Shown: positions 35,185 to 41,367 of the stretch, piece by piece
Layout of the letters: every line of letters starts with the position of its first letter
Position numbering within the stretch: the stretch's first letter is position 1
Origin: an uncultured Muribaculaceae bacterium
GTDB taxonomy: Bacteria; Bacillota_I; Bacilli_A; RF39; UBA660
DNA: 63,635 nt
NCBI GenBank assembly: GCA_964548815.1
Contig: CAZJSD010000001.1
Coordinates: 1 to 63,635 of the forward strand
Reading direction: 5' to 3'
Translations under genes and position numbers: made by a program
Notes under the pieces: model-generated
Told to the model about the DNA's origin: nothing
The model's database searches: none
The model's input: the letters and a program-made list of their open reading frames with translations, nothing else

Positions 35185-38100
35185 ATGAAAAAAATAGAGA
35201 TACTTGATAAAAGAAAAAAAAGAGAAAAACATTACTTACAAGAAGATGGAACCTTTATAGCTGAATTATATGATGATGATGTTCATTTTTTTAATAACGA
35301 AAAATATGAAGAAATAGATAATACATTAGAATTAAAAAATGATTATTATACAAATAAAGCCAACGATTTTAAAGTATATTTTTCAAATAAGCGTGATTCA
35401 GAAATTATGAAATTAGAACAAAATGGAAATTATATAATTACTAGTTTAAAAAATTATAAAGACTATAGTATCGAAAAGAAAAAAAATACATCTATACTAT
35501 ACGATAATATTAAATATGTCGAAGTTCTTAAGAATATAGATATATCCTATGATATTACACCATCAAAGGTAAAAGAAAATATAATTATTAAAAATACTGA
35601 TGCAGATATAGATAATCTCATTTTTGAAATAAAAACGGATTTAGATTTAGAATTAAATGATAATGAAATTGTAGCAAAAAAGAATAATCAAAAATTATTT
35701 TCTATTGAAAATCCATATATGATAGATGCGACAGGAGATATATGTAAAAACGTTCATTATTCATTAGCAAAAAAAGATTCTTTTTATGAATTAAATCTTA
35801 GTGTAGATTATGCATGGATTAATAAATCAAAATTCCCTATAATAATTGATCCAACGATATCGCAATATTCTAATGAAAATAGTGTAATAGATACATATAT
35901 TTATGAGGGGGATACTGGAATAACAAAAAGTAATTTAGAATATTTTAAGGTAGGTGTAGAAAGAAATAATAATGTTGATATTAAAAACAGGGCATTATTA
36001 TGGTTTCAGTTACCAGAATTAGGGACAGGAAGTCAAGTTATTTCAGCTAATTTATTATTACGTGGTTATCCAGATACACCAAATAACTATAATTATACAT
36101 ATTTAGATATTCATAAAGTTAATCAAGAATGGATGAACACCGAACCAAATTGGGTCAATATGAACGATAAATATGATTCGAGAGTTGAAGGAAATATGGA
36201 GGCTAGAAGAACATATTTTATTACAGATAATACAATTAGTTATTGTATGTGTGCAGGAGATATAACATCATTAGTACAAAAATGGTATACAAATGAACCA
36301 AATTATGGAATTTTAATAAAGTCTAGTAATGAAGTATATAATTCATCATTACTACCTCAATTTTTTTCTAAAGAAAACAATGTCAATGGAGGTTCTCCAA
36401 AACCATTATTATTAATAACTTATAGAATTTTAAATGGTATAGAAGAATATATGGGTTTAGAGTCTCATGAAATATCAATAGGGAAGATATATCACAATCT
36501 TTTTAATGGAAATCTTATTTCTTTATTTGAAATAGGAAAGACATCTAATATTCATCTAAATCTTGTTTATAATACAAATGATGTAGTTTTAAATAAGAAT
36601 ATAGGATATGGATTAGGTTTTAGGCTTAATTTTAGTCAAACCATTGAAGAAGAATATGTAGATAATACAAAGTATTTAAAGTATATTAATGATACAGGTG
36701 CAGTTCATTACTTTTTAAATAAGAAAAATAAGATAGTTAATAACAACATAGTAGAAGAAAACTACGTTAATAAATATTGTGATGAAGATGGACTAAATTT
36801 GACAATAACTGACTTTGATACATATTATATATTAACTGATAATAATGGTGTTGAAAATAGATTTGATATTATTAATAATATAGGTTACTTGACTCAAATA
36901 AAAAATAAAGCATCTGATGTAATAAATATTTCTTATGACAACAACAATAGAATAATTAGTATTATTGATTCTAACAATGAGCAAATGAGTATATCCTATA
37001 ATAATAATATTATAAGTATAACATCACCTACAATTATTTATAGTTTAACATATAATAATGATTTTAATTTAACAAAGATTAATGTTTTAAATAAGGAAAT
37101 AAATATTTTGAATACAAATAACTTAATTACAGAGATAACAGATGTTAATAATAAAAAAATATGTTATGAGTATTATAATAAGAATCCATATCGTATAAAA
37201 AAAATTAGTCAATATGGCAATAATAATGATTTGGGTAGGTATTATTTATCTAATTACAACCATTTTTCTACTACATTAACGGATTTTAAAGGAAGAAAAA
37301 AGAATATTCTATTTAATTCTCAAGGAAATCCAATTTCTGTTACTGGGTTAGATGAAAATATAGATTTAAAAACTGGATATGGCAGTAAATTTGATTTTAA
37401 AGATTCTGATATTACGTTAAATAATTTTACTAATAAGAATCTAAGTTCATACACACCAATAAAATATGTAAAAAATTTATTAACTAATTCAAGTTTTGAA
37501 CAAAACAATATTATTTTTTTGAATGAAAATGTTTCTTGTTCAATTAGTGATGATTTTGCAAATAGTGGTTTTACAAGTTTAAAGTGTGAATCAACAGATA
37601 CCGATTCTTTTATATATCTTATAAAAGAATTGCCAGTTAATAAGAATTACACTTTTAGTGGTTATTTTAAACCAATAAATGAAAGCGTCACTATGAGTAT
37701 ATATTCCACTGATGAAAATGATAATTTTATATTAAATGAAGAAGTGATTATTCCTACTTCTGATGATTTTGAAAGATATGATGTTTCTACATTTCTTTCT
37801 TCAGATTCAACTGGAAAAATAAAAATTATAATAAGTATATCTGATTCAGAAATATGTTATATAGATAATATTCAGTTAGAAGAAGGAATGGTTGCTAATG
37901 AATATAATTTTATAGATAATTCTGATTTTTCGGATGGATTAGATTCTTCATGGCAAGTTACAAGTTCAAACTATCCTCCAAATAATATTGTAAGTATTGC
38001 AAGTATAACGCCGAATCAAAATGCTTTAAAAGTTAAAATGTATTCTTCTAATACAACTGAAATATCAAAAACATTTGAAATAAGTGGAAAACAAGGAGAT

Positions 38101-41100: not shown

Positions 41101-41367
41101 AAAGAATTAGATTTACATTTAGCTTATGGTAAAACAACATTGAATATTTATGAAAAAGAACCAAATTCCAATATATATTCTGTAAAAATAACAGATAGAT
41201 ATAATTTTGAATATTGGGATCCAAATGGACCATTAACAAAGAATAATGAATTGTATAAGTTTATTGTTTATATGAATGATGCTGCTTATTTTCTACAATT
41301 CTTTGGCGTTATTAATAATTATGATTATTCAATTCAATTTGATTATAAATATGATAAAGGAGAATAA
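35185..41367 (+). CDS. giant RHS/YD-repeat polymorphic toxin (2060 aa) without a recognisable signal peptide
   Basis: AAGGAGGA RBS. DNRLRE-like region (about 35860-36440). Two CBM-like jelly-roll segments (about 37470-38390). Many YD repeats. The RHS core ends at YCNNDPINNIDPSGQ (D1870-Q1874) and is followed by a 186-aa tip. Confidence 0.95.
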   Translation: MKKIEILDKRKKREKHYLQEDGTFIAELYDDDVHFFNNEKYEEIDNTLELKNDYYTNKANDFKVYFSNKRDSEIMKLEQNGNYIITSLKNYKDYSIEKKKNTSILYDNIKYVEVLKNIDISYDITPSKVKENIIIKNTDADIDNLIFEIKTDLDLELNDNEIVAKKNNQKLFSIENPYMIDATGDICKNVHYSLAKKDSFYELNLSVDYAWINKSKFPIIIDPTISQYSNENSVIDTYIYEGDTGITKSNLEYFKVGVERNNNVDIKNRALLWFQLPELGTGSQVISANLLLRGYPDTPNNYNYTYLDIHKVNQEWMNTEPNWVNMNDKYDSRVEGNMEARRTYFITDNTISYCMCAGDITSLVQKWYTNEPNYGILIKSSNEVYNSSLLPQFFSKENNVNGGSPKPLLLITYRILNGIEEYMGLESHEISIGKIYHNLFNGNLISLFEIGKTSNIHLNLVYNTNDVVLNKNIGYGLGFRLNFSQTIEEEYVDNTKYLKYINDTGAVHYFLNKKNKIVNNNIVEENYVNKYCDEDGLNLTITDFDTYYILTDNNGVENRFDIINNIGYLTQIKNKASDVINISYDNNNRIISIIDSNNEQMSISYNNNIISITSPTIIYSLTYNNDFNLTKINVLNKEINILNTNNLITEITDVNNKKICYEYYNKNPYRIKKISQYGNNNDLGRYYLSNYNHFSTTLTDFKGRKKNILFNSQGNPISVTGLDENIDLKTGYGSKFDFKDSDITLNNFTNKNLSSYTPIKYVKNLLTNSSFEQNNIIFLNENVSCSISDDFANSGFTSLKCESTDTDSFIYLIKELPVNKNYTFSGYFKPINESVTMSIYSTDENDNFILNEEVIIPTSDDFERYDVSTFLSSDSTGKIKIIISISDSEICYIDNIQLEEGMVANEYNFIDNSDFSDGLDSSWQVTSSNYPPNNIVSIASITPNQNALKVKMYSSNTTEISKTFEISGKQGDLLTLSFWYKNEGLVSAKYWDEILVPHNGVSLRFHPIENIQSDAYIFQEPLNNNENEWQFFIYNFYAPFDYDNFKLLFYQSQNANDLYITNINLFKDIRNIRNEFDESSNIKTKIHLNNKTSNYSYDNNNELVCVNKPNNKNFIYEYDNDNPKKILSTISEDGVINEIEYSNNKPTVSRTIDKGIMFTPNQGAFKIRLKGTNKNIGIHGDSILISNEKHSHYTWNLNSININDITYYTFSHSIINNKYFRCDSSNQLVLSNYSGDENLFILEKQSNGSFYIKNKASNLYLKISDNCLIFDSINDNNSDYEFYFESNFNSKFLENNTYYSLDGINIEKTIDSDLHSLNYTFDQNTGLINSVTNAIGNVTNYEYNTNRQLIKLKNNDREVLYNYGSNNKISKITQGEREYNITYDNYDNLKKILIGNNIELIDNIYETNNGNLIQKKYGNNQSRYFEYDRFDRVTKITNEDSIFKYYYNNISNIGKIVSDFGVQKFRYDLSRNIIEYKNGDFSIKYKYNDNNDVIEKKFKIDNLEYLIENTYDDELIQKQKFNNVELNYIYDEIDRITDKNIGNNISNNYTYLDNGKRASLQVKKIINNLKTIEYKYNKLNNVTHIYDNNVLVNKYYYDEYHQLIKEDDYNRGLTIRYKYDEYGNIISKSTYKIGTYDVINIDKYSYNNSSWLDQLTKYNNNSIVYDDIGNPTIIGNDELTWINGRQLSQYIKGNNTISFKYDESGFRLSKSINNNEIKYYLENKKLVLEKGNNYVLYYMRDTEDNIIGFVYNSIVYFYIKNKFNDVIAIIDLQGNVIAKYYYDSWGNTYKITDGNNVDITNNSNHIGIINPIRFRSYYYDKETELYYLNDRYYNPKWGRFLNADGVIMTCTPIIGNLYSYCNNDPINNIDPSGQSILKKLVNAYNKIKSKIKTVIKACSDFVSPILKNASKALNRSLNDRPGNICYGPTDNTVVNAVKNSNTFKSTISNAIANKQYGTSSSAAPDIALRFPVKELDLHLAYGKTTLNIYEKEPNSNIYSVKITDRYNFEYWDPNGPLTKNNELYKFIVYMNDAAYFLQFFGVINNYDYSIQFDYKYDKGE
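40807..41364 (+). other. C-terminal polymorphic toxin domain of the RHS protein (unassigned fold)
   Basis: Sequence downstream of the DPSGQ core-end motif; no nuclease, deaminase or ART motif recognised by eye. Confidence 0.65.

Follow-up and report, generated by a model that had tools for sequence, protein, structure and literature searches.

An Rhs polymorphic toxin with carbohydrate-binding-type modules in its shell, carried beside fibre-like and lysis genes on a conjugative element of gut Bacilli

How Gram-positive bacteria export and aim Rhs cocoons of 230 kDa is an open question, and the passage of such toxins across the wall is stated to be open in the study of WapA from Streptococcus suis (PMC12704120). 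The same question is raised by a locus in a 63,635-nucleotide stretch of DNA from an uncultured gut bacterium (positions 1 to 63,635 of contig CAZJSD010000001.1, assembly GCA_964548815.1; hereafter the window). Here, positions 35185–41367 form a single uninterrupted open reading frame (ORF) of 2,060 amino acids, on the forward strand like all genes of its cassette described below. The product is an Rhs polymorphic toxin, with every testable defining feature of the class present. The most informative clue to its working comes from its surroundings, as the gene is the cargo of an integrative conjugative element (ICE), is accompanied by a fibre-like partner and by holin and endolysin genes, and encodes a protein without a signal peptide. 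The best overall explanation, and a reasonably probable one, is that the toxin would be released as a free bacteriocin by way of the holin and endolysin, in a manner resembling the type 10 secretion system (T10SS), and would carry an envelope-acting tip.

Architecture and family of the Rhs protein

The repeats of the protein were recognised by Pfam (RHS_repeat, PF05593; 57.5 bits against a cut-off of 22) and its Rhs-associated core by NCBIfam (TIGR03696, aa 1782–1874; 65.9 bits against a cut-off of 32.5). This core closes the main shell of YD repeats (aa 1290–1874, 39052–40806), which matched the Rhs structures 8h8a (E 4e-42), 7q97 and 8uy4 in the Protein Data Bank (PDB), and it terminates in DPSGQ (aa 1870–1874), with the DPSG beginning at residue 1870, right before the tip. 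Such a canonical DPxG-type ending had been proposed in a first-pass annotation made by eye, all coordinates of which proved correct. That annotation had also placed YD sequence on both sides of an insertion, as is indeed the case, and the shell additionally includes a first part further upstream (aa 430–760, 36472–37464). The family profile over aa 425–762 matched the Rhs shells of Tre23 (7pq5, E 3e-6) and a Salmonella bongori Rhs protein (8qja, E 7e-6). Between two insertions lies a short YD stretch (aa 1070–1160, 38392–38664) with the motifs YSYDNNNEL and YEYDNDNP, identified by direct reading; it spans 91 residues here and 90–93 in all aligned homologues.

The N-terminus is formed by an all-β, DUF7948-like domain (aa 1–225, 35185–35859; Pfam DUF7948 E 1.5e-3, below the cut-off), followed by a CBM96 domain (aa 226–415, 35860–36429), CBM standing for carbohydrate-binding module and CBM96 being the current name of the DNRLRE domain. 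When pieces of the protein were scanned separately, PF24517 (CBM96) matched aa 229–410 with 33.6 bits against a cut-off of 26. An AlphaFold2 (AF2) model of aa 1–430, built from 57 homologues, is confident, with a mean predicted local distance difference test score (pLDDT) of 87 and values of 81–95 in the DUF7948-like domain. In Foldseek, its second half superposes with probability 1.0 on both the alginate-binding CBM96 7vbo (TM-score 0.68) and the chondroitin-sulfate-binding CBM 8wab (TM-score 0.70). Thus, the DNRLRE region that had been read at nt 35860–36440 is borne out by a profile match above the cut-off and by a model matching CBM96 structures. By structure comparison, the combined DUF7948 and CBM96 unit resembles a 1,379-aa Siphoviridae protein (E 1.6e-25, TMq 0.76), and its further matches are several phage CBM96 or tail proteins. 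The first 60 residues are conserved like the core, with column conservation of 0.71 against 0.72 in an alignment of 119 family members.

Two sets of modules interrupt the shell. The upstream set is a pair of jelly rolls of the CBM4/9/22 type (aa 763–1068, 37471–38388), and because aa 425–762 are Rhs shell too, this pair is an insertion in the shell and not a module ahead of it. Family profiles of the first jelly roll matched the CBM of xylanase C (4xup, E 1e-4), a galactanase (9fli) and a laminarinase (1gui), and those of the second matched the CBM of CelJ (2zex, E 2e-4) and that of a hyaluronate lyase (4d0q, E 2e-3). The Pfam family CBM_4_9 (PF02018) scored 15.8 bits in this protein alone, under its cut-off of 25.9, and precomputed PF02018 matches are present in several homologues; NCBIfam GTA_spike_fiber also touched the segment below its cut-off (E 9e-6). 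The two jelly-roll segments suspected at nt 37470–38390 are therefore matched by solved CBMs at the level of family profiles, with the Pfam score of this protein lying under the cut-off.

The downstream insertion is a ricin-B-like β-trefoil of 126 residues (aa 1163–1288, 38671–39048). Its family profile matched the β-trefoil lectins MITSUBA-1 (5xg5, E 5e-10) and SeviL (6lf1, E 1e-5), then Symfoil designs and HA-17, and at a looser threshold aligned to MITSUBA-1 in two stretches. An alignment of 23 trefoil members displays three repeats of one hydrophobic pattern, and 22 of the 23 matched RicinB_lectin_2 (PF14200), a few of them also Fascin, HA-17 or CDtoxinA; the RicinB-type score of the window's protein alone was 20.7–22.8 bits against a cut-off of 25.6. 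The segment at nt 38671–39050 is accordingly a β-trefoil, as had been suggested, and not ordinary YD repeat. Alignment to known lectins is limited to the trefoil framework, so the word lectin denotes a fold assignment here. The further suggestion that a trefoil within an Rhs repeat region would be unusual holds in comparison with published Rhs, Tc and teneurin structures, and a full-text literature search returned no paper combining Rhs, YD repeat and β-trefoil; it fails within the family itself, where the trefoil is a fixed feature.

This family is large. A search with aa 760–1875 returned 658 clusters (90% identity) at E ≤ 1e-10, and the best 120 of these are nearly all of about 2,050 aa and 38–53% identical over the queried part. 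Every module is present in each of the 118 full-length homologues of the alignment (34–55% identical), including a trefoil insert of 116–157 aa in the same place. Module lengths are constant within a few residues across the 119-member alignment and only the tip varies, with column conservation of 0.16 against 0.72 for the core; tips annotated on other members include Ntox44, Tox-REase-7, Tox-WTIP and AHH. Where a member has a name, in two sources, it is that of a DNRLRE domain-containing protein from a Bacilli or Firmicutes metagenome-assembled genome. Together they constitute a large and previously undescribed family of Gram-positive Rhs toxins that is abundant in gut metagenomes. A trefoil embedded in an Rhs protein was seen in three of 399 species genomes of the class, and all three belong to the window's own family, whose genomes measure 0.8–1.4 Mb. 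Long Rhs homologues also occur in two human-faecal records filed as 'Bacteriophage sp.', MT835902.1 and MT836326.1 (79% and 40% of the query covered, 25–29% identical), which may have been called viral owing to the cassette's fibre and lysis genes.

An N-terminal hydrophobic segment is missing in all 119 members: the best 12-aa window within the first 50 residues scored at most 0.93, in comparison with at least 3.0 for the anchored immunity proteins described below. The window's protein begins MKKIEILDKRKKREKH, which does not qualify as a Sec signal peptide, and it lacks an N-terminus of the LXG/WXG type. Pfam and NCBIfam revealed no LysM or sortase motif on it, LysM being confined to the neighbouring endolysin. 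Membership in the WapA type, which is exported by Sec and anchored to the wall, was rejected, as neither the signal peptide nor the LysM repeats were found.

The tip and its immunity gene

The polymorphic tip comprises the last 186 residues (aa 1875–2060, 40807–41364) and belongs to a small, undescribed family. The first-pass annotation could assign it to no known toxin family, and this stands: there was no match in Pfam (E ≤ 10), in NCBIfam or, using a tip profile, among PDB sequences; 11 family members had no Pfam match at E ≤ 1; and Foldseek of the tip model returned nothing at E ≤ 0.001. A HMMER search of 1.84 billion representatives gave about 23 relatives, located on Rhs cores, on proteins with signal peptides or as stand-alone proteins, and this variety of carriers is the typical spread of a polymorphic-toxin domain. 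An alignment-based word search gave three proteins only, and neither a word-indexed search with the tip nor a related-locus search of genome, metagenome and viral contigs returned any relatives. The invariant residues (tip numbering) are F96, D102, L103, D130, Y132, N157, A160, G167 and Y172, which fall among an N/H-S-L-x-D-x-P segment, a D-L pair, an invariant D-x-Y-[DN]-[FY] motif, an N-N-x-A helix and a G-x-I-x-x-Y strand. The model predicts an amphipathic, lysine-rich helical lead of about 40 residues, followed by an α+β core of about 140.

Three nucleotides after the Rhs stop codon begins the candidate for the cognate immunity gene (41371–41805), encoding a 144-aa lipoprotein with the lipobox LIASGC. 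Homologues of this lipoprotein follow the same tip at two further loci, L018 (E 1e-13) and L021 (E 5e-5). At all six tip-family loci inspected (the window, four further Rhs alleles and one stand-alone tip), the product of the ORF immediately downstream carries a hydrophobic anchor at its N-terminus. Because the protein beside the tip is thus anchored to the membrane in every case, the tip itself probably acts outside the membrane, as judged from these sequences.

The pairing of tip and lipoprotein is further illuminated by sister elements (L002–L007), in which a different Rhs allele precedes an orphan tip fragment of 106 aa. The fragment is 92% identical to the window's tip from residue 94 on, and it turns up on at least 17 metagenome contigs; the immunity gene beside it encodes a protein identical at 143 of 144 positions (99%). 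Upstream, the regulator, both fibre genes and a small protein are 99–100% identical to those of the window. Downstream, the immunity gene, holin, endolysin and a 74-aa ORF are about 99% identical, and the sigma-like gene 84.5%. The right-hand DNA breakpoint lies at window position 41104, within the tip. The replacing allele is about 45% identical in protein and brings its own tip together with a 216-aa immunity protein bearing two transmembrane segments. This is classical Rhs C-terminal displacement, and the retention of the orphan fragment with the immunity gene ties the lipoprotein to this tip.

The exchange between these otherwise about 99%-identical ICEs involves the whole Rhs gene and not the tip alone (for example L003:3107-10759), and the first 50 residues of the replacing allele are 86% identical to those of the window's protein. 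In L002, this allele is split into frames of 1,643 and 430 aa and is probably broken. A different arrangement occurs in a genome of the same family (L013, G350:C1:74637-78056), where a stand-alone tip-family frame of 156 aa is followed by a membrane-anchored protein of 160 aa, the Rhs gene of that genome lying about 40 kb away; this may be a free pair of toxin and immunity or else an old orphan.

The cassette and its conjugative element

The cassette opens with a small ArpU-like protein of the phage late/lysis regulator type (32094–32564; TIGR01637 E 3e-5, below the cut-off), which is 100% identical in the sister element L003. Two fibre-like genes follow, whose products each bear a Gp10_C head named for the C-terminal part of the T4 baseplate protein gp10 (PF21939). 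The first (32663–33784; E 8.7e-18, 66 bits) has no signal peptide, its first 50 residues reaching a hydrophobicity of 0.95, and the second (33766–34815; E 1.4e-11) is its paralogue, 45% identical by blastp. Between these and the Rhs gene lies a gene (34754–35161) for a small protein of about 110–135 aa, which is helix-rich or coiled-coil-like by eye and has no family match; homologues (48% identical) occupy the same position in L011 and L012, and in L027 an ORF of 128 aa is found at the corresponding place. Downstream of the immunity gene are a holin of the toxin-secretion/phage-lysis class (41968–42327; PF05105 69.3 bits, TIGR01593 holin_tox_secr 66.8 bits against a cut-off of 40.2) and an endolysin composed of a GH25 muramidase and two LysM repeats (42293–43282; PF01183 E 2e-24, PF01476 E 5.6e-33). 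A small sigma-70 region-4 protein (43752–44219; PF08281 27.4 bits, TIGR02937 E 2e-9, below the cut-off) is a candidate regulator of the cassette.

The arrangement was compared across 13 lineages, made up of the window and 12 other members (mainly long contigs, four of them for the tip family) plus two from species genomes, the cassette being located in ICEs as well as in plain chromosomal sites. In each of the 12 lineages readable on that side, the Rhs gene has a Gp10_C gene directly upstream. In nine of the 13, genes for holin-like or small membrane proteins and for a wall hydrolase lie downstream, and the hydrolases are of at least five types (GH25-LysM, M23-LysM, M23, CW_7-LysM and Amidase_2), indicative of non-orthologous replacement. 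The cassette usually has a sigma-70 region-4 protein (about 160 aa) close by: homologues 37–48% identical to that of the window occur beside it in L008, L010, L011 and L012, and Pfam also called Sigma70_r4-type ORFs in L019 and L026. Two different small regulators thus bracket the window's cassette, the ArpU-like one upstream and the sigma-70 region-4 one downstream, while in both L011 and L012 a sigma-like copy stands on either side of the cassette.

Some lineages add genes of their own. The chromosomal cassette of L008 has, after its hydrolase, a 592-aa phage tail-collar (PF07484) protein as a second fibre-type gene (L008:16658-18436). In L025 (861-2936), which has no lysis genes, a C39-peptidase ABC exporter is encoded two small ORFs upstream of the Gp10_C gene, and in L023 an ABC transporter is encoded directly upstream of it; these transporters may be there by chance or may hint at another exit route.

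The cassette is the cargo of an ICE and not of a prophage. The window encodes ParA/ParB, a relaxase, a type IV coupling protein, a VirB4-like ATPase, a CHAP hydrolase and a serine recombinase. A prophage, as suggested by the Gp10_C genes, the holin, the GH25-LysM endolysin and the serine recombinase, was rejected since the rest of the element is conjugative. PHROGs identified no head or tail genes in the window, and megablast with 24 kb matched none of 50,697 phage records. A match to an Anaeroplasmataceae phage was set aside, its Rhs gene standing in a different context. The host genome contains a single Rhs gene, and its six matches of the penicillin-binding protein type and five Mur-ligase matches indicate that the host has a wall to lyse. 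Elsewhere in the window are a surface adhesin with a thioester domain (TED) and SpaA folds (13109–14653), typical of Gram-positive conjugative elements, and, amid the mobilisation genes, a ThsB-like TIR-domain protein (17383–18006; PF08937, E 8.5e-6) that may be anti-phage or NAD-consuming cargo.

Release, targeting and comparison with known systems

Release as a free bacteriocin can be laid out as a sequence of proposed steps. The toxin and its fibre-like partner would leave the producer by way of the holin and endolysin, through either lysis of a subpopulation or non-lytic holin export, perhaps under the control of the small sigma-like or ArpU-like regulator. This exit is proposed because the Rhs and fibre-like proteins are both without an export signal and because a holin and hydrolase usually follow. 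Finding the target cells would then fall to the four modules of glycan-binding type on the free toxin and to its trimeric Gp10_C fibre-like partner. The tip would be severed inside the cocoon by the core, an aspartyl protease, as happens in other Rhs and Tc proteins, and in target bacteria it would act at the membrane's outer face or at the wall. As a first guess, it may be a hydrolase of a lipid-linked wall precursor or of a wall polymer, given the outside-anchored downstream protein at all six loci and the invariant polar Asp, Tyr and Asn residues. A more far-reaching version can be entertained only tentatively, namely that the system is a self-contained Gram-positive counterpart of Tc toxins, in which a diffusible Rhs bacteriocin, its cocoon bearing all four glycan-binding modules, would dock by its first 60 residues on the phage-derived Gp10_C trimer that recognises the target, would be served by a dedicated holin/endolysin and its own sigma-like factor, and would deliver a new class of envelope-acting toxin defined by the present tip family.

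Several observations weigh against this explanation. The holin/hydrolase pair is absent in four of the 13 lineages (L021, L023, L024 and L025), so it is not the sole exit route of the family. In DNA of 24% GC, a promoter and terminator scan was uninformative (156 sites against 133 expected), and because such AT-rich sequence gave no usable calls, the operon structure is drawn from gene order alone. Within the trefoil alignment, the sugar loop of the MytiLec type is gapped, and only hydrophobic W/F positions equivalent to QxW are retained. The AF2 model of the tip, built from 10 sequences, is mediocre (pLDDT 64, predicted TM-score 0.61); its best fold neighbour, 9jdi_A, is a non-significant match (E 0.25, probability 0.54) and serves as a lead only. 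The tip shows no catalytic motif by which a known enzyme class could be recognised, and its D130-x-Y132-[DN]-[FY] corresponds to the first half only of the colicin M motif. Finally, the host, a gut member of the class Bacilli with a small genome and with peptidoglycan, is known only from metagenomes.

The absence of lysis genes in those four lineages would also suit a WapA-like toxin that stays bound to the producer and acts on contact, reaching the outside by an unrecognised route and retained on the producer's wall by its CBMs, with the holin and endolysin aiding passage through the wall or being unrelated. Studied Gram-positive Rhs toxins, the WapA proteins of Bacillus subtilis and S. suis, are wall-associated and have a DNRLRE domain (PMC12704120), and CBM96 is present here as well. 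Nevertheless, a cell-bound toxin is unlikely, given that none of the 119 members has a Sec signal, that the Rhs protein lacks LysM, a sortase motif and an LXG/WXG-type N-terminus, that the fibre-like partner is without a signal too, and that at least five unrelated types of wall hydrolase recur at the same position. This last point bears equally on the idea that the cassette is the decayed end of a prophage or tailocin, with the Rhs protein as a tail-fibre or host-recognition part and with fibre and lysis genes linked by descent only: the arrangement is kept across changes of lysin type, which speaks for selection on function. The order of fibre, Rhs, holin and endolysin genes is usual for phage tail-fibre and lysis genes, the DUF7948 and CBM96 unit resembles phage tail-type proteins, and full-length homologues occur in records filed as 'Bacteriophage sp.'. 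Yet no capsid, portal, terminase, tube or sheath gene stands beside the cassette in the loci read, where the neighbours are conjugation or housekeeping genes, and a polymorphic tip accompanied by an immunity gene and an orphan module marks a toxin, not a structural protein. Descent from a phage particle is accordingly very improbable as the explanation of the cassette.

A separate issue is whether the tip is an enzyme at all. It might be a membrane-perturbing or pore-forming peptide domain, blocked by its immunity protein at the membrane surface. The predicted amphipathic lysine-rich helices of its first 40 or so residues would fit this, as would the membrane anchoring of the downstream proteins, the clearly hydrophobic tip and two-transmembrane immunity protein of the displacing L003 allele, and the non-significant fold neighbour 9jdi_A, which is the C-terminal domain of a Bacteroides fragilis type VI secretion system (T6SS) effector in complex with its immunity protein. 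A pore is nonetheless rather doubtful, because the tip has no membrane-spanning hydrophobic helix (its best 19-aa window scores 1.1) and because a compact α+β core with invariant Asp, Tyr and Asn better suits an enzyme or a specific binder.

If the toxin is indeed released as a free bacteriocin, the family offers a testable route unlike both Sec/WapA and the type VII secretion system, comprising a fibre-like partner in all cases, a lysis cassette in most, and lectin-type modules in the shell. As cargo on conjugative elements of uncultured Bacilli with small genomes, such toxins may shape strain competition in the gut. The tip would add a compact toxin/immunity pair, each partner measuring about 140 aa, that is without known relatives and has the cell envelope as its probable site of action. 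Additionally, the insertion of domains into the Rhs shell is relevant to the re-engineering of Rhs and Tc cocoons as delivery vehicles. A full-text literature search combining Rhs, holin, endolysin and polymorphic toxin returned three papers, which to judge from their titles are T6SS surveys of Gram-negative genera.

Among individual modules, the trefoil shares its three-fold repeated hydrophobic framework with ricin-B, MytiLec, SeviL and HA-17 lectins (5xg5, 6lf1, 2e4m), but it is embedded in an Rhs shell, where those are free or terminal, and the MytiLec sugar loop does not align. The tip invites comparison with the colicin M-type bacteriocins that degrade lipid II, whose active-site motif is DxYD(x5)HR (DKYDFNASTHR; PMC8469651). 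Extracytoplasmic action, as proposed here, and immunity anchored at the outer face of the membrane are common to both, and D-x-Y-[DN]-[FY] recalls DKYDF. Membership was rejected all the same, in that the HR five residues on is absent in all tip members, Pfam gave no match and ColM was not among the 50 Foldseek matches listed; this is a resemblance and not membership.

At the level of the whole protein, WapA (B. subtilis WapA; S. suis WapA-CT1, PMC12704120) provides the closest plan in several respects: a single-chain YD cocoon with a DPxG core, a DNRLRE/CBM96 domain near the N-terminus, a polymorphic C-terminal tip, an immunity gene downstream and orphan tip/immunity modules. Unlike WapA, the present protein is without a Sec signal, LysM repeats or a partner of the sortase or SecF kind; its shell holds a CBM pair and a trefoil in addition, a Gp10_C gene lies upstream, and a holin and wall hydrolase usually lie downstream.

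The lysis genes have their own parallels. In Clostridium perfringens, the UviAB/bacteriocin locus holds a similar set, with a UviA-type sigma factor and the UviB holin. The combination of a large toxin without a signal, a holin of the TIGR01593 class, an endolysin-type gene and a small sigma-70-like regulator is also that of the pathogenicity locus (PaLoc) of Clostridioides difficile, with TcdR as its sigma factor and TcdE as its holin (PMC3369941, PMC12485765), where release of the large toxins is TcdE-dependent (PMC3369941). The differences from PaLoc and UviAB lie in the class of toxin, which is Rhs rather than a glucosyltransferase or BCN5, and in the intact endolysin, the immunity gene and the fibre-like partner found here.

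A further comparison is with the Tc (ABC) toxins. In Yersinia entomophaga, a Tc toxin without a signal is set free by a holin/endolysin cassette, a type 10 secretion system (PMC10847048). The T10SS gene set of holin and peptidoglycan hydrolase beside a signal-less cargo is present in the window, and no spanin is expected because the host is Gram-positive. Both systems have an Rhs-type cocoon enclosing a tip, here a putatively cleaved one, lack a signal peptide, are encoded near a holin and endolysin and include carbohydrate-active or carbohydrate-binding parts; the Rhs core also matches YenC2 and TccC by sequence. In contrast to Tc, the cocoon here is a single chain without the TcB/TcC split, and there is no sign of a pentameric injector of the TcA type, the window holding no large neighbouring gene and no search aimed at TcA having been made. 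The locus counts here as an analogue of the Tc systems rather than as one of them. The partner is a short phage-fibre-like protein, and the link to lysis comes from gene order only. The presence of an immunity gene, a further departure from Tc, points to a bacterial target.

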